A stretch of DNA of 31,163 nucleotides from a virus (Duplodnaviria; Heunggongvirae; Uroviricota; Caudoviricetes): the IMG/VR virus record IMGVR_UViG_2541047775_000006. One strand, 5' to 3'. Positions 3,601 to 26,276 of this stretch are shown in pieces. The notes beneath the pieces are model-generated. The model was not told the origin of the DNA. It saw only the letters and a program-made list of their open reading frames with translations, and made no database searches. Both the position numbers and the translations under genes were made by a program. Position 1 is the first letter of the stretch, and every line of letters starts with the position of its first letter.

Positions 3601-3921
3601 ACTGGACTGTGAGGCCTGCTTCAGACGGGCATTTACTGAATTCCACTCATCGGCGAGAGAAATAAGATGACCGGTAGCAAAAGCCCCGGCAAATGCCCCC
3701 GCCATGTTCAGTGCCGAAGATTTAGCTGTATTTATCTGATCCGTCACTTCTGCCAGTGCACGCCGCATTTCACGGGATGCAGCAGCGGACTGTCGGCCTC
3801 CGTTCTGCATGGTACGGTAGTAATCCTGCCCCATACGCGAAGCCCGGGAGATCTCTGACTGGAATGACCGGGAATTTGCCGAGATTTTAATAATCAGTTC
3901 ACGTAATGTCGCCACACTCAT
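676..3921 (-). CDS. tail length tape measure protein (gpH-like)
   Basis: 1081-aa ORF, coiled-coil/Ala-Gln-rich, positioned between G-T and M as in lambda. ATG at 3921. Confidence 0.9.
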   Translation of the reverse strand: MSVATLRELIIKISANSRSFQSEISRASRMGQDYYRTMQNGGRQSAAASREMRRALAEVTDQINTAKSSALNMAGAFAGAFATGHLISLADEWNSVNARLKQASQSSDDFQSSQRELMAISQRTGTAFSDNASLFARSAASMREYGYSSEEVLKVTEAISTGLKLSGASTAEASSVITQFSQALAQGVLRGEEFNSVNENGDRVIRALAAGMGVARKDLKAMADNGKLTADKVVPALISQLGALRDEYAAMPDTVSSSATKVENAFMAWVGGANEASGVTKTLSGVLNGIAGNIDTVATAAGALVAVGVARYFGNMASSAGSATAGLITAARNEVALAEVQLRGTQIATARARAAVYRAQQAVVAARGTERQAVAEAKLTAAQVSLTRNIAARTAAQTTLNNVTSVGSRLLSGALGLVGGVPGLVMLGAAAWYTMYQNQEQARESARQYAATIDEIRQKTSAMSLPEASDNEEKTRQALKEQNRLIDEQKSKIKSLQEKIAGYQYVLANPGWTTDNGFMINHMTSVKTVTEGLAEATNQLAVEQSRLTQMQGKAQSIQDVLAGLEERRVALIRQQAAEQNKAYQSLLIMNGQHTEFNRLLGLGNELLQQRQGLVNVPLRLPQATLDDKQQTALNNSERELALSRLKGEARERARLGYAADDLGFVGEAYQTARLNYINNSLDAWRNNQANKPKAHKKTEAEKIEDTYKQLIKQQKEQIALAGQNTELAKMKYQVSQGELSTLSEAQKKTLLQNAALIDQKKIREQLAAYESSLADSNASVRASNEAQLLGYGEGSRMRERLQEMWSIRQEFEQKNNELLRQYQAGEIEEALWKQEKSLNEKYLEERLSDQQDYYAKADALRSNWNAGLQEGLTNWADSATDYASQAADAVVSTMDGLVSNISDALAGNVVDWRNWGSSILQEVSKILMNAAIVNGLKSLSKSMSGAGGWLGTVGDWLSGAVANAKGGVYTSANLSAYSNTIVDTPTYFAFAKGAGLMGEAGPEAIMPLTRAADGSLGVRAIGNVNGGGGFVYSPVYHISIQNKGSNGEIDTQSAKGLVDLIDSRVVSIMQSSRRDGGLCSA

Positions 3922-21768: not shown

Positions 21769-21930
21769 AGTGACATCCTCATGTGCGAATTTTGAAAACT
21801 CACCACATGGGACGCCAATCACAGAGGTGGTGAGACGTACAGGGTTGGCGTAACCGGTCGCACATGACCCCGGCGCATCTTTCGATGCCCCTGCACGCCC
21901 CACCATAATTTGGATGTGAGGAAACGTGCG

Positions 21931-21954
21931 CAAAAAAACCGCTGAAGCGCGGTT
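21931..21954 (-). terminator. terminator-like hairpin (tR1-like) upstream of rha
   Basis: Plus-strand aaaaaaAACCGCtgaagcGCGGTT; on the minus strand a stem then 7 U, about 85 nt downstream of the DUF4222 gene stop. Confidence 0.45.
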
Positions 21955-22039
21955 ATGCGCATGTGCGAATTTCAGGACGCCAATCCCGGCACCCGCTTTA
22001 TAAGGTGCCTGAACAGTGTAACGTCCCGGAATGGCAGAA

Positions 22040-22410: not shown

Positions 22411-23048
22411 GCGTTAGTTTCTCCACAACCAGAAGCAATCGACGCCACGACGCCCGGAGCTGCACACTCGCGGGCGTTACTCTTTTCCGGCGCACAAAAA
22501 ACACGAAATAACAGTGTTAAATGCTCCTGCCACTTCGCCATTACTTGGTAGCTGTTCTCTTCGATTTGCTCACGCTCAGCCTGGTCAATAACTCCATCAG
22601 CAGTTGCCTTGCGTAAGTACTGGGAATGCTTGCCAATCCATTCTATTGACTCCATCAGCCGCTGATTAATGTCACCATTGTCAATGTCATCAATGACCAC
22701 CAGCGGCACAAACACCCCATTACTACGACGGGCTATTGCATCCGTTACATGCCTGGTACCACTGGCATCCTGTAAAACCATGGCCCACTCAAGTGGAAAA
22801 ATTTGATCCCCACCGCTACGCAGTCTGTTATGCAATTGATCTTTTGCTGGGGTGATATCATCAGATTTATACAAACCAAGAATTTCTGCTGCTTCCTCAT
22901 AGCCATGAGGTAAATCAGCAATCGTTCTTCGTATTGCTGCCACCAGCCATGCTGGTTGCTTATCAACTTTCCATTCAGGTTCTTTACCCACGTTTAAGCC
23001 CTCATATCTGTGGTTTCTGTAAATCGATTTATCCATTAGATTTTTCAT
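22407..23048 (-). CDS. early regulatory protein at the cII position (function unassigned)
   Basis: Probable ATG at 23048 ([13 protein letters not shown]...), just 5' of the cro stop; track ORF start 23105 would overlap cro by 77 nt. Confidence 0.55.
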
Positions 23049-23229
23049 AAAGCTCAGGTTTAAATGGCAACCGTCCGCAAGTTCTATATGCAGCCTCTGC
23101 TGCACGTCCTTTTGGAATTAACTGGCCAGGACGGTTTCGCCACTGATAAACGGCTTCAGTTGTTATGCCGAAAAAAGCAGCAACTTTCTCAATGCTGCCG
23201 AAGTAGCTTTCGATATCGTCAGTCGTCAT
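23029..23229 (-). CDS. cro: Cro-like HTH repressor
   Basis: 66 aa, divergent from cI across a 97-bp operator region; HTH-like segment VAAFFGITTEAVYQWRNR. Confidence 0.7.
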   Translation of the reverse strand: MTTDDIESYFGSIEKVAAFFGITTEAVYQWRNRPGQLIPKGRAAEAAYRTCGRLPFKPELYEKSNG

Positions 23230-23326
23230 ATGCCCTCCAAACTAAGTTTTATTAGATGTTAATTATCAATCTATCTTAGGTCAATAAAAACTAAGATTAC
23301 TTAGTAATTAAAGAAATGGTGCTCCT
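23230..23326. promoter_or_regulatory. OR-like operator/promoter region (divergent cro and cI promoters)
   Basis: Three 16-bp operator-like sites sharing half-site ACTAAG/CTTAGT: ACTAAGTTTTATTAGA (23241..23256), CTTAGgtcaataaaaaCTAAG (23276..23296), ACTAAGATTACTTAGT (23290..23305). Confidence 0.65.
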
Positions 23327-23953
23327 ATGGAAACGGTTGGTCAGCGTATAAAAGCTCTGAGAAGAGTTACCAGAACGTCCCAGAAAGAATTGGGTAAATT
23401 TTGTGGAGTAAGTGACGTTGCTGTGGGGTACTGGGAGAAAGACATCAATGTCCCTGGTGGGGAAGCACTTTCAAAATTAGCGAAGTTCTTCAATACGTCA
23501 ATAGATTACATTCTTTATGGTGCGGAGTTTGAAGGCAAACTCGTCACAAACATGCGCAGAGTTCCTGTAATCTCGTGGGTTCAGGCTGGGCAGTTTACTG
23601 AGTGCAGGACAGCAGAAGTGTTTAGTGAAGTAGACAAGTGGGTAGATACATCATTAAAGATTGGTGATAACTCATTTGCATTGGAGGTTAAAGGCGACTC
23701 CATGACTAACCCTAACGGCCTCCCAACAATACCAGAAGGCGCAACAGTGATTGTAGATCCTGATGCAGAACCCCGGCATGGAAAAATAGTCATCGCTAGA
23801 CTTGATGGAACAAACGAAGCCACAGTAAAAAAATTAGTTATCGATGGCCCTCAAAAGTTTTTAGTGCCATTAAATCCCCGGTACCCCAACATCCCGATCA
23901 ATGGTAATTGCCTCATCATTGGTGTAGTCAAAGGAGTTCAATACGAACTCTAG
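23327..23953 (+). CDS. cI: CI-like repressor (HTH_XRE plus S24 LexA-like peptidase)
   Basis: 208 aa; N-terminal HTH (QKELGKFCGVSDVAVGYWEKD), C-terminal peptidase with Ser in GDSM and Lys in VKKL; GGTGCTCCT ATG. Confidence 0.9.
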   Translation: METVGQRIKALRRVTRTSQKELGKFCGVSDVAVGYWEKDINVPGGEALSKLAKFFNTSIDYILYGAEFEGKLVTNMRRVPVISWVQAGQFTECRTAEVFSEVDKWVDTSLKIGDNSFALEVKGDSMTNPNGLPTIPEGATVIVDPDAEPRHGKIVIARLDGTNEATVKKLVIDGPQKFLVPLNPRYPNIPINGNCLIIGVVKGVQYEL

Positions 23954-23972
23954 CCCCCCCTTTTCTCTAACC

Positions 23973-24006
23973 AAAACACCGAACTAAGAAAAGTTTGGTG
24001 TTTTCT
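23973..24006 (+). terminator. terminator-like hairpin after cI
   Basis: AAAACACC...GGTGTTTT, an 8-bp stem followed by CTCTT, about 20 nt after the cI stop. Confidence 0.45.
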
Positions 24007-24017
24007 CTTGCCATTAA

Positions 24018-24033
24018 AACTAAGTTAAGTTAG
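24018..24033. promoter_or_regulatory. OL-like operator site (ACTAAGTTAAGTTAGA), possible pL region
   Basis: 16-bp site matching the OR half-site pattern; possible -35 TTGCCA (24009..24014) and -10 TAGATT overlapping it, directed to the plus strand. Confidence 0.4.
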
Positions 24034-24142
24034 ATTTTATATCAAAGATAACGAACAGGCAGGACGCCCACGAAGTAGCCGCCTGGGGCATATGAAGTCC
24101 AGGATGATTCGTTAGTACCAAAAAAGCGCCCTACCGGACGCT

Positions 24143-24175
24143 TCGCTCTTTAAAAATCAGTAACCCTCACTTTGG
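24143..24175 (+). promoter_or_regulatory. boxA-like motif with short downstream hairpin (nutL-like)
   Basis: CGCTCTTTAAAAAT resembles lambda nutL boxA CGCTCTTAAAAATT and rrn boxA (from memory); followed 11 nt later by CCCtcacttTGGG. Confidence 0.35.
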
Positions 24176-24309
24176 GCCTGGATCTGGTGGCCTGGGACGA
24201 GGTGGAATATGAAAAGGCTCTATTGGTCGACTCATTATCCAATCCTATTATGTCTCATTTCTTCGGTTTCGGTGGTTTCGGCTTCGGAGGTACATGTCCG
24301 TGAACTGGA

Positions 24310-24804
24310 TTATGCTTGTTGGTCATCATTAATATCCGTTAGTTCATTCTCTAGAGGTAGATCTCCCGCACACCAAGCTATAAATTTTTCTTTGGTTGTT
24401 AAATCGTACTTAGTTGGAACACCAGCAAAAATACAGGCCCGAATGAAAGCCGCTCGTTCAAGTGATTTCCATGGATTACTATCAGTATCTTGGATTTTTA
24501 AATACCTAGCTTGCAACTGATCTTCAGGAAGGGTATCAGACTCAATCAGCAGTCTTTTGTAATGCCTCGCTTGCTCTTTAGACATTCCAGCCTCTTGGCC
24601 AAACTGATAGACCAACTGAAGAACCGAAAGTACGGCAACAAACAAACCGAAAATAAATAAATTACTGTACGGGGCGAAAACTGAAAAACCGAGAACGATT
24701 AACATCAACGTTATTAATTTATCAATGCGAGTTAACAACGTGTAATTCATCTTCTCCAATACATAAGAGTAGTGAACATAAAATTTATAATCGTCTCTGG
24801 TCAT
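24310..24804 (-). CDS. unrecognised membrane protein, convergent to cI (candidate exclusion/defence moron)
   Basis: 164-aa uninterrupted ORF in AT-rich DNA; hydrophobic segments LITLMLIVLGFSVFAPYSNLFIFGLFVAVLSVLQLVYQF, then a charged soluble C-terminal domain. No family recognised by eye. Confidence 0.6.
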   Translation of the reverse strand: MTRDDYKFYVHYSYVLEKMNYTLLTRIDKLITLMLIVLGFSVFAPYSNLFIFGLFVAVLSVLQLVYQFGQEAGMSKEQARHYKRLLIESDTLPEDQLQARYLKIQDTDSNPWKSLERAAFIRACIFAGVPTKYDLTTKEKFIAWCAGDLPLENELTDINDDQQA

Positions 24805-24905
24805 ATTAGTCTCAGTTTTCCTTGGGTGGTTTTGGAGGAACTGGAGGCTTTTGTCTTAACGGCACATGCCTCTCCTCATACTTATCTACACATAGATCCA
24901 TATAA

Positions 24906-25053
24906 ATCCTTATCGTTGTTGGGGAGGGTTACATAATAACCAAATCCTTGTTGTTGGGGAATAACCAGGTCCACCTCGCCTGATGTGGCTAAAAGCAGGC
25001 ACATAACAGCTAAGTATTTTCAACCAGAGAGAATCCTTAGCGTTGTGGTGAAT
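24906..25053. repeat. three imperfect approx. 20-bp direct repeats flanking a 15-bp palindrome
   Basis: ATCCTTATCGTTGTTGGGGA (24906), ATCCTTGTTGTTGGGGA (24944), ATCCTTAGCGTTGTGGTGA (25033); palindrome GGTTACATAATAACC (24927..24941). Confidence 0.6.
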
Positions 25054-25193
25054 GCGCAGGCTGATGCGCGAAAGACATTGCAGCTATTGCGGAAAAGAGC
25101 TGTTCGGCGGGGCAATTAAACGCCCGTGAGAGTCTGAAATAACCGCAAGCCGGAGATCAGCACCGGTCACCACAACAGCCACTGCTTTGGCGG

Positions 25194-25322
25194 TACCAGT
25201 TTGTACACTTGCTTCCGGCTGGTACCGCTCTTTTTACAAAACAGAGAAGAGCATCACCGGACGACGGGCTCATAACCCAATCCATCCGGGCGGCTGCCAC
25301 CGCAGGTGTTCTTCTCTGTTTT
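25194..25322 (+). promoter_or_regulatory. structured leader of early-left operon: hairpin, boxA-like motif, long stem-loop
   Basis: GGTACCAG...CTGGTACC (25194..25228) followed by GCTCTTTTTACAAAA (boxA-like), then a perfect 13-bp inverted repeat AAAACAGAGAAGA / TCTTCTCTGTTTT (25238..25250 and 25310..25322) enclosing a GC-rich 59-nt loop, ending about 35 nt before the rdgC-like ATG. Confidence 0.5.
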
Positions 25323-25358
25323 GTGGAGAAACTAATACATTGTGCAGAGGAAAATAGA

Positions 25359-26276
25359 ATGAAATTACCAAAATTTCGTAACGCAATTGTGTACCGAGCA
25401 ACATTACCTAGTATACAGGCTATTGAAGGTCATCTTCTCGAACTCCCTTATTCTGAAATCGGGGAAACAGAATTTTCACGGTCCTCTTTTGTAGAGAATC
25501 CTGTCACTGGTGAACTGGTAACTCCGATATCTGGTGGGTACGCAATGGTAATCCGTCATGATCAGAAAATAATTCCCCGACATGTCGTCATGAAAGAAGC
25601 TAATTCTCGAATCCAAACAATCGAAAATATGTCCGGGAATAAATTAAAGCGTGCCGAACGACTGGCCATTATTGATAACGTACGAGTAGATCTATGCAAA
25701 CAGGCATTTGTTAAGTCTACGCTGATTCTTGCATTGTACAGCACTGATGAGAAATTATTGGTAATCAACACAACCAATAAAATAATAGCCGGTATGGTAT
25801 GCGCAATGCTGATTAAGGTTGTCGGTTCAGTGAAAACAGAAACAATCAACATCAGTGATATCAAGAATGGACTGACTACACGCCTGAATAACTACATCAA
25901 TGGTGCAGCCAATGCATTTGAAGGATTCACTGTCGGAAATTATATTCAGCTATCACGCTACGCAGATCAAAAGGAAATTATTCGCTACTCAGCTGAGCAT
26001 GAGTCAATTCAAAGCGAACTGGCCGATAGCCTTAGTAGTAGTTTCACTGCTGATAAAATGGAGTTATCCGGTTGCGGTGTGACCTTCATTCTTACCGAAA
26101 ATTTCCATTTTTCGCGCATCAATACTCAATCTCAGACATTTAATGATGAAGATGATAAAGCATTCCAGTGGCGTCATCAGACTGGCGCTGACCTTTTCCA
26201 ATTCAGCAAGGTAGTTAATTTGATGTGTGACCTTCTTTCTTACAAAGAAGATAAAAGCCAAAATCCAACAACTTAA
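25359..26276 (+). CDS. RdgC-like recombination-associated protein
   Basis: ATG at 25359 with GAGG SD gives MKLPKFRNAIVYRATLP... (RdgC begins MLWFKNLMVYRL as I recall); central VIRHDQKIIPRHVVMKEA...KLKRAERLA parallels RdgC. Track ORF start 25209 lies inside the leader hairpin. Confidence 0.6.
   Translation: MKLPKFRNAIVYRATLPSIQAIEGHLLELPYSEIGETEFSRSSFVENPVTGELVTPISGGYAMVIRHDQKIIPRHVVMKEANSRIQTIENMSGNKLKRAERLAIIDNVRVDLCKQAFVKSTLILALYSTDEKLLVINTTNKIIAGMVCAMLIKVVGSVKTETINISDIKNGLTTRLNNYINGAANAFEGFTVGNYIQLSRYADQKEIIRYSAEHESIQSELADSLSSSFTADKMELSGCGVTFILTENFHFSRINTQSQTFNDEDDKAFQWRHQTGADLFQFSKVVNLMCDLLSYKEDKSQNPTT

Follow-up and report, generated by a model that had tools for sequence, protein, structure and literature searches.

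Two systems of lambdoid phages, the N/nut system of lambda and the put RNAs of HK022, are the textbook models of processive antitermination. Many other lambdoid phages, including the serotype-converting Shigella phages, Salmonella ST64B, Gifsy-like prophages and many Escherichia coli prophages, carry neither N nor put. The SfIV genome paper reported that SfII, SfIV and SfV lack N, cII and cIII (PMC3851460), and a 2025 paper on LLS-, ST64B- and phiNP-type phages, in which N is also missing, suggested put RNA-mediated antitermination, a 'put-like' guess for which no element was named (PMC12315714). Here we have analysed a stretch of 31,163 nucleotides (nt) (IMG/VR record IMGVR_UViG_2541047775_000006, the whole of which is called the window below), which is a lambdoid prophage of E. 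coli of the SfV/ST64B type. Positions 24008-25358 of the window are the 1.3-kb untranslated leader of the early-left promoter (pL) operon of a prophage without an N protein, and near the start of this leader lies element L, a conserved structured RNA that was previously undescribed. With its 64 nt, near-invariant core and clear covariation, element L occupies the exact position of nutL and putL.

Element L appeared as a near-identical block right after two unrelated pL promoters when the window was aligned with SfV. It begins approximately 6 nt into the pL transcript, which probably starts near 24044, and has the following parts:

24050-24113, plus strand: element L, a 64-nt three-helix leader RNA, delineated by conservation, covariation, RNAalifold and the covariance model R1
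24050-24055 / 24108-24113, plus strand: helix P1
24058-24060 / 24066-24068, plus strand: helix P1a, with the loop AGGAC
24058-24079, plus strand: 22-nt core GGCAGGACGCCCACGAAGTAGC
24082-24086 / 24099-24103, plus strand: helix P2, with the loop GGCAUAUGAAGU
24104-24107, plus strand: conserved junction AUGA

From the alignment of 52 sequences, it is clear that these helices are maintained. The P1/P1a/P2 partners are paired in 96% of the cells, compared with 22-43% when the partners are slid against each other, and compensatory double changes are found in 11 of the 14 pairs, with 184 cells changed on both sides. Two of the helices carry heavy compensatory covariation, and none of 500 shuffles reached the covariation level of the element. 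RNAalifold yields the same structure unaided, and the pairs with the highest mutual information are the base pairs of P1, P1a and P2; no extra (pseudoknot) pairs emerged from mutual information over this alignment, because the core does not vary. Since G-U pairs are found on the plus strand only, the folded molecule is the pL sense-strand RNA. The unpaired core (which contains the stretch CCCACGAAG), the P2 loop GGCAUAUGAA and the AUGA junction barely vary, and approximately 24 unpaired nt (CCCACGAAGUAGC, GGCAUAUGAA) are unchanging. The window copy scores 90.4 bits with R1, and 99 distinct 72-nt versions of the element were counted. Neither Rfam 15 at E<=10 nor a full-text literature search with the core sequence returned a match to the element or a paper on it. 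A hammerhead or another small ribozyme was considered for the L junction and rejected, as the strand lengths and their order do not fit and Rfam gives no match.

The distribution of element L is broad. Blastn located it in 51 phage records, in none of which it is annotated, including SfII, SfIV, SfV, ST64B, SPN3UB, SEN34, mEp237, Yersinia YeP1-3, Pantoea AH07, Pectobacterium ZF40, Citrobacter phiNP, Klebsiella phages, Aeromonas pAEv1818 and T5-like Providencia phages. The 22-nt core GGCAGGACGCCCACGAAGTAGC is present in more than 120 viral contigs (among the matches listed) and in 92 stretches of species-representative genomes across Enterobacterales, with genera such as Escherichia, Citrobacter, Enterobacter, Klebsiella, Kosakonia, Pantoea, Erwinia, Pectobacterium, Serratia, Yersinia, Xenorhabdus and Photorhabdus; behind a repressor gene, the element was found in at least 170 distinct phage or prophage contexts across this order. 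The core is unchanged from E. coli to Aeromonas, which points to a conserved host partner, and in the T5-like Providencia phages the P1a loop is 2 nt longer. In the virulent T5-like Providencia phage PR1, element L (76 bits) lies in the terminal repeat (positions 2001-2100 of stretch L013), in the pre-early (first-step-transfer) region upstream of the A2/A1 genes.

Element L is always transcribed first, from a sigma70 promoter next to the repressor gene. In every annotated temperate case, L is located 120-170 bp past the repressor gene, on the same strand and just behind a strong promoter, and the operators of these promoters, as well as the early-left genes that follow, differ between the phages, the first genes being very different. 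A sigma70 match of at least 9/12 is present within 90 nt upstream of L in 154 of 189 distinct contexts, versus 16 of 205 control windows. In the window, P1 begins 14 nt past the end of the -10 hexamer (24036 to 24050); in the relatives, the core mostly starts 20-32 nt after the -10 hexamer and lies 8 nt into the element, so that L is expected approximately 5-17 nt into the transcript. The arrangement of a repressor terminator followed by the promoter is also found in SfV, ST64B, SPN3UB and ZF40, and a built-in terminator scan of five relatives confirmed the order of repressor terminator, promoter and element L. The corresponding features of the window are:

23029-23229, minus strand: cro
23327-23953, plus strand: cI repressor gene, LexA/S24-type
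23973-24004, plus strand: intrinsic terminator of the cI transcript, a 13-nt inverted repeat AAAACACCGAACT/AGTTTGGTGTTTT followed by a T-run
24008-24036, plus strand: probable pL, sigma70-like TTGCCA-17-TAGATT, from a promoter scan
24017-24040, plus strand: operator copy ACTAAGTTAAGTTAGAT overlapping pL (oL), recognized by the motif common to the oR copies
25359-26276, plus strand: first early-left gene, rdgC-like, 305 amino acids (aa), phrog_724 with E = 4e-77, annotated as rdgC in RefSeq

Three oR copies of the operator motif are present at 23239-23311 between cro and cI, and a CII-like gene lies to the left of cI/cro. Rightward from pL, rdgC is followed by a 5'-nucleotidase gene, Ead/Ea22, excisionase and int genes. 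The 1.5 kb surrounding the leader features are 100% identical to sequences of several clinical isolates.

Several further leaders carry L-like sequences. In the racR-ydaG interval of the Rac prophage of E. coli K-12, a decayed L of 10.5 bits was detected (stretch L232, 9517-9553, minus strand), and it is followed by a second conserved motif that is also seen in Gifsy-like and mEp237 leaders; the annotated Rac small RNA KilS lies further downstream and is an unrelated element. L variants with GUCAUC or CCACC P1 helices occur in Gifsy-like phages, mEp237 and the Aeromonas phage, and some 10-60 nt after these variants, as in many IMG/VR loci, there is a second conserved block, ACGCGCAGCAGGU..AACGUUCCGCYRGCC, which forms a small covarying hairpin just ahead of the first open reading frame (ORF). 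The lambda pL transcript has AUCAGCAGGACGCAC...AUGAAGGUGA at its start, then boxA, and it shares with element L the 9-mer GCAGGACGC and AUGAAG at a similar distance from the start (stretch L234, 571-579, minus strand). The lambda leader was nevertheless rejected as an L homologue, since it reaches only 5.3 bits with R1; the likeness is a curiosity, for which homology is unproven.

We have compared this leader with the nut system of lambda, which an initial annotation of the window had raised by pointing to two boxA-like motifs, to a long stem-loop and to the lack of a recognizable N gene. The features that bear on the first motif are:

24123-24142, no strand assigned: hairpin AAGCGCCCTACCGGACGCTT with A6 before it; on the minus strand, the stem and the T6 have the form of an intrinsic terminator that would serve the antisense gene
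24143-24156, plus strand: boxA CGCTCTTTAAAAAT, predicted to be a site of the type used by NusB/NusE, with 1 mismatch to GCTCTTTAACAA
24310-24804, minus strand: antisense 'moron' gene, 164 aa, membrane-like, phrog_6315 with E = 9e-64, a hypothetical protein in RefSeq

The absence of N was borne out. PHROG and Pfam family scans and a scan for Arg-rich motifs found no credible N candidate in the window, and the closest phages, SfII, SfIV and SfV, are N-less as well (PMC3851460). The ORF at 24209-24520, situated where N would be expected, has no PHROG match and only a sub-threshold Pfam family, and the antisense gene that overlaps it is a real gene, as the annotation had supposed. A search for small Arg-rich ORFs, which had been proposed for the relatives, left 160 of 161 distinct L contexts without an N-like ORF. 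The sole L context with an N-like protein (MHNFHGYDNARKRRHERRKEL...) is that of Xenorhabdus bakwenae, where it is encoded approximately 1250 nt downstream of L (stretch L200), so that L and N can co-exist. Among the phage records compared, the L-, put- and N-bearing sets do not overlap.

The first boxA-like motif, CGCTCTTTAAAAAT, is genuine. No other site in the window comes within 1 mismatch of the 12-mer GCTCTTTAACAA. Since chance alone would supply approximately 2.7 sites per window at up to 2 mismatches, boxA by itself is not significant, and it is its conservation in the relatives that establishes it. The same site is present in 16 distinct viral contexts as GCTCTTTAA[C/A]AA, usually (A/C)GCTCTTTAACAATC, and the usual 13-mer of the relatives, GCTCTTTAACAAT, has exactly the sequence of boxA in the rrnH leader of E. 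coli. The rrn-type boxA GCUCUUUAACAA is matched at 11 of 12 positions in the window, and at 12 of 12 plus the next U in most relatives. The second motif, GCTCTTTTTACAAAA, proved not to be a boxA. It starts at 25227 rather than at 25229 and differs from the boxA 12-mer by more than 2 mismatches, and its GCTC is not conserved (GTCC in SfV, GACC in ST64B) while the T-run and the GC-rich hairpin before it are kept, which identifies it as the U-tract of a terminator.

Like lambda nutL, the window has its boxA about 100 nt into the pL transcript, and the two boxes (CGCUCUUUAAAAAU in the window, CGCUCUUAAAAAU in lambda nutL, whose boxA is CGCTCTTAAAAAT) are almost identical. Unlike lambda, the leader has no boxB, N or nutR, and a hairpin precedes boxA instead of following it. 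No conserved hairpin that could serve as boxB was found after boxA, where the relatives diverge completely, and the segment 24040-24210 folds no better than its shuffles (z = +1.2). The reading of both motifs as nut sites, served by an N that has diverged strongly or has been lost, is therefore very improbable and largely refuted, despite the nearly identical boxA and the N-like protein in the Xenorhabdus bakwenae context: one of the two is a U-tract, the immediate divergence after boxA leaves no conserved boxB, no Arg-rich ORF is present in the window or in 160 of the 161 relatives, and the pR side has nothing comparable. Prophage decay does not account for this layout either, since the viable phages SfV, SfIV, Kati and ST64B share it.

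HK022 offers a parallel in its put RNAs, putL and putR, since here, too, a cis-acting RNA of approximately 65-75 nt comes right after pL in an N-less lambdoid phage (King et al. 1996; Hwang et al. 2022, PMC9378689). The resemblance extends to the combination of conserved unpaired nt with helices, and to hosts that are temperate phages of Enterobacterales. It does not extend to sequence or structure, in which there is no similarity: element L consists of the closing helix P1, a mini-hairpin and P2, while put has two long stems with a 5' triplex, and L is present as a single copy without a right-operon site, unlike put. We have rebuilt a put model (R2) from the GenBank records of putL of HK022, phiEt88, S9-5, CobraSix and HK639. 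This model gives 94.8 bits for HK022 putL and 99.3 bits for HK639, and finds HK022 putR, which was outside the training set, at 39.9 bits; on the pL leaders of the window and of seven other L phages it returns nothing at E<=10 with filters off. In the other direction, R1 gives no match in HK022, so that the covariance models fail both ways, and when the leader is compared by blastn with the immunity region of HK022, only chance words come up. The idea that a diverged HK022 put member resides in the leader, as element L or as the long stem-loop B2 described below, can draw on the shared position just after pL and on the short words CGAAC..GGC and CAGGAUGA common to L and put. These words sit in covarying or variable positions, and with a model that detects putR unaided and is silent on all eight leaders, such a kinship is hardly credible. 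As judged by its sequence, element L is thus neither a put RNA nor a nut site. Of the 'put-like' antitermination offered in the initial annotation, the RNA-based route still provides the best reading, but the long stem-loop is not put; the element that best fits a put- or nut-like role is that at 24050-24113, outside everything flagged at the time.

In the window, the hairpin at 24123-24142 lies directly 5' of boxA on the plus strand, and in the 16 distinct viral contexts it is kept as AAAAAAGCGCCCTACAGGACGCTT, always abutting boxA, with a varying loop and a maintained stem. The similarity between the relatives ends just after boxA, with a mosaic junction after AATC, which makes hairpin plus boxA a module in its own right. 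A boxA is present in 23 of 174 distinct L leaders, and an antisense ORF of at least 144 aa lies just downstream in all 23 of them, as opposed to 50 of the 151 leaders without boxA (Fisher p = 2e-10). Thus, rrn-type boxA elements travel with antisense gene cassettes in phage leaders. The antisense protein of the window is weakly similar to SieB of Rac (29% identity, E = 0.026), and sieB of Rac is likewise antisense within its early-left operon. PR1 carries the identical 14-mer CGCTCTTTAAAAAT 9 nt after L with neither the hairpin nor an antisense gene, and boxA is hence found beside L in two unrelated contexts.

The boxA type invites a comparison with the antitermination leader of the rrn operons (boxB-boxA-boxC, with NusA/B/E/G, SuhB and S4). 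The relatives carry the exact rrn boxA GCUCUUUAACAAU, and in both cases a structured RNA comes first and boxA second; in the phage leaders, too, boxA would protect a long untranslated transcript. The differences are the lack of a recognizable boxC here, the phage context, and the presence of boxA in no more than the 23 of 174 L leaders mentioned; after boxA the relatives share only AAUCUGG, where rrn has ACAAUCUGUGUGGG, boxC being UGUGUGGG. The rrn-type boxA shields untranslated transcripts from Rho, and CRISPR arrays are reportedly protected by boxA as well. The strict association of boxA with the antisense cassette supports such a Rho-shielding role for it in the phage leaders.

Between the antisense gene and rdgC, the leader folds strongly. 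The 304-nt segment 25037-25340 reaches z = -6.2 against shuffles, and it contains:

25035-25177, plus strand: module A, an STnc100/PasD-like RNA domain, folding as three hairpins inside a closing helix
25041-25050 / 25167-25176, plus strand: closing helix of module A, GTTGTGGTGA / TCACCACAAC
25189-25235, plus strand: B1, an intrinsic-terminator-like hairpin GGCGGTACCAG...CTGGTACCGC with the U-tract TCTTTTT, from the fold
25231-25330, plus strand: B2, a long leader stem-loop with a basal helix of approximately 24 bp and two inner hairpins

The complete order of the leader is therefore pL/oL, element L, hairpin plus rrn-type boxA, antisense gene, STnc100-like domain with its terminator, the conserved three-way stem-loop B2 and rdgC. 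A tRNA/tmRNA scan of 24800-25500 found none, and Rfam at E<=10 over 23900-25450 gave two spurious matches only.

Module A was assigned through its relatives and its frame. At its position, the SfV and ST64B versions match RF02076 at 39.5 and 35.1 bits, for a gathering score of 47, and the window version has no RF02076 match at E<=10 in 23900-25450. The window also harbours a bona fide STnc100 (14714-14913, minus strand, 140 bits), which has a common frame with module A, namely the closing helix with GGUGAAU...CACC; the alignment of the two keeps an 8-bp closing helix with compensatory changes. With B1, module A has the architecture of STnc100/PasD, that is, a framed closing helix, GC-rich first and last (terminal) hairpins and an intrinsic terminator at the 3' end. 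It differs from STnc100 in that its interior is replaced and that it sits in the pL leader, not downstream of the late regulator. Both STnc100 and PasD belong to the small RNAs of prophages that associate with Hfq, and their function is unsettled (bioRxiv 10.64898/2026.05.13.724894; PMC12370729). Module A occurs as a mosaic unit also in the P1-like RCS47, in Klebsiella phage IME207 and in the Ackermannviridae phage T751, meaning that the STnc100/PasD family reaches pL leaders, P1-like plasmids and virulent Klebsiella phages. In RCS47, the domain (stretch L005, 3001-3143) comes right after tRNA-Asn/Thr, with a second copy nearby at 3700-3820; in the Klebsiella siphophage IME207 (stretch L006, 3001-3142), it lies just ahead of tRNA-Ser/Arg; and in Klebsiella phage T751 (stretch L233, 1506-1612), it is found within 2.6 kb that have no annotated genes. 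The first 37 nt of the domain are 94-100% identical across many unrelated Klebsiella phages.

B1 is a GC-rich stem followed by a U-tract, an intrinsic terminator that is putative in its activity. Its stem (25189-25229) has 11-13 bp and approximately -21.7 kcal/mol, and its loop is unusually long (15-19 nt), which is why a simple terminator scan missed it. In the relatives, the U-tract is invariant, while ST64B and others have a different stem sequence, and a strong terminator-like hairpin with a U-tract stands between pL and the first gene in the window, SfV and ST64B alike. B2 is the long stem-loop that had originally been described as a 13-bp perfect inverted repeat around a 59-nt loop. The repeat is real and its arms are indeed separated by 59 nt, but it is larger, with 15 perfect bp (25236-25250 / 25310-25324) and an extension to 25-nt arms at 84% complementarity. 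In the folding and covariance check suggested for it, the stem is kept by compensatory changes in the relatives: for 32 distinct versions, RNAalifold gives 34 pairs, 7 of them with compensatory changes. The motifs GACGGGCTCATAACCCAATCCA and GGAGAAAC are conserved in B2, and in the consensus fold the B1 U-tract is base-paired to a conserved GGAGAAA at the B2 base. The length of the inner hairpin varies by non-multiples of 3, which indicates a non-coding element; a small ORF across B1 and B2 (25187-25357) was likewise rejected as coding, as its indels are not multiples of 3.

The final 300 bp ahead of rdgC are a mosaic, the units of which occur separately in other phages; the pL leader as a whole is assembled from exchangeable, mobile RNA modules. 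Three direct repeats of AATCCTT..GTTGT are present at 24905-24919, 24943-24957 and 25032-25046. The third forms the 5' edge of module A, and the other two thus have the look of incomplete duplications, or of scars left by recombination, where the modules join. In CPS-53 of E. coli K-12, modules A, B1 and B2 have been lost.

A polymerase travelling from pL to rdgC has to cope with 1.3 kb of untranslated RNA, an antisense gene and a strong terminator-like hairpin, and does so with no N. Element L is the part of the leader best placed to alter the polymerase, because it is transcribed first, is pL-specific, has the same unpaired nt in hosts with RNA polymerase and Nus factors in common, and excludes N and put; it is the most plausible candidate for an N substitute. 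By analogy, it would be a functional counterpart of nutL and putL. In the most likely reading, element L, aided by boxA and Nus factors where the antisense cassette is present, would make transcription from pL termination-resistant. A polymerase leaving pL would transcribe element L first, and its conserved unpaired nt may be recognized by a conserved component of the host, be it RNA polymerase itself or the Nus factors, turning the elongation complex into a termination-resistant form, as with nutL/N and HK022 putL. BoxA would load NusB/NusE, such that the long untranslated, antisense-crossing stretch would be guarded from Rho, and the modified complex could then pass the terminator B1. Polymerases not coming from pL would halt at B1 and release an STnc100-like small RNA, and by stopping unmodified polymerases B1 might insulate the kil-type early genes in the lysogen. 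The simplest proposal for B2 is a hairpin for RNase III-type processing or for stabilisation, through which the early mRNA would acquire a defined 5' end, a role that may be likened to that of the lambda N leader hairpin.

The chain of modules that forms this N-less pL leader is what the analysis shows; for its mechanism, antitermination by L and boxA, with read-through of B1 and processing at B2, is the best explanation that we can offer, although our confidence in it stays somewhat below even. The more general proposal, that element L represents a new class of cis-acting antiterminator RNA, which binds RNA polymerase and/or Nus factors directly, has boxA as an optional helper and replaces N in a large group of temperate Enterobacterales phages (SfV, ST64B, Gifsy-like, ZF40, YeP1 and others) as well as in some T5-like pre-early regions, is made tentatively and seems to us possible rather than probable.

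A number of observations weigh against assigning antitermination to element L. In ZF40, YeP1 and SPN3UB, simple scans detected no canonical intrinsic terminator on the sense strand at distances of up to 2 kb from L, so that overcoming intrinsic terminators is not a general need; Rho-dependent sites cannot be predicted. (A terminator counter of our own, run on 148 loci, gave more matches in the antisense than in the sense direction; it was too permissive and has been discarded.) Element L occurs once per locus, and no other boxA within 1 mismatch was found in the window; its pR operon has neither L nor boxA, whereas right-hand sites are present in lambda and HK022. The hairpin next to boxA can also be read as a minus-strand terminator that would serve the antisense gene, so that boxA might merely be carried along with the cassette. 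Element L is thermodynamically ordinary, as shown by the z value of its segment given above. Part of the invariance of its core stems from the use of exact-match scans, even though the blastn-derived set displays it too, and the contexts counted are phylogenetically non-independent.

Lastly among these points, L contains CsrA-like GGA motifs, CAGGACG in a hairpin loop and GGAUGA, which make a 5'-end stabiliser a serious rival. Element L would then be a 5'-terminal element for stability or translation control, possibly bound by CsrA, that shields the pL mRNA from 5'-end-dependent decay by RNase E; CsrA is said to protect the flhDC mRNA in this way. The distance of L from the presumed 5' end, only some 5-17 nt, would suit this role, as would the presentation of CAGGACG in the loop of a 3-bp hairpin together with a nearly invariant GGAUGA, the very different first genes that L precedes, and the L phages in which no terminator is predicted nearby. 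A stabilising stem, however, would need no 24 or so unchanging unpaired nt, the second GGA is lost in ZF40 and the Aeromonas phage, and neither the adjacency of boxA nor the absence of N would be explained. We therefore regard this role as unlikely, while taking it seriously.

It could also be argued that element L acts in trans, as an abundant early small RNA or decoy freed from the 5' end of the pL transcript, for example a sponge that soaks up a host RNA or protein, or an anti-defence RNA. A strong promoter drives its synthesis ahead of the rest of the transcript, temperate and virulent (T5-like) phages alike have conserved it, and its neighbours (the STnc100-like domain, C4 and isrK) are known phage small RNAs. 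But L is followed by neither a terminator nor a conserved processing site, the sequence directly 3' of P1 is unconserved among the relatives, and L is a single-copy element in each genome, with no published small RNA that matches its sequence; a function in trans thus appears improbable, more so than one in stability.

Beyond the leader, the window contains further RNA and regulatory modules. A C4 antisense RNA (21823-21910, minus strand, 75 bits) and isrK (21932-22008, minus strand, 62 bits) are located in the pR operon ahead of an antirepressor-like gene; the pair is a P1 immI-type module within a lambdoid prophage and is also present in SfV and ST64B. At the position expected for Q (15268-15981, minus strand), there is an AraC-family helix-turn-helix protein (PF00165, PF12833) and no recognizable Q. 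After this gene come three tRNA genes (14993-15239), the full STnc100 described above and then the lysis genes.

If element L indeed binds RNA polymerase or the Nus factors, it would provide a compact tool for insulating synthetic operons, and it would constitute a second natural RNA solution to termination control.

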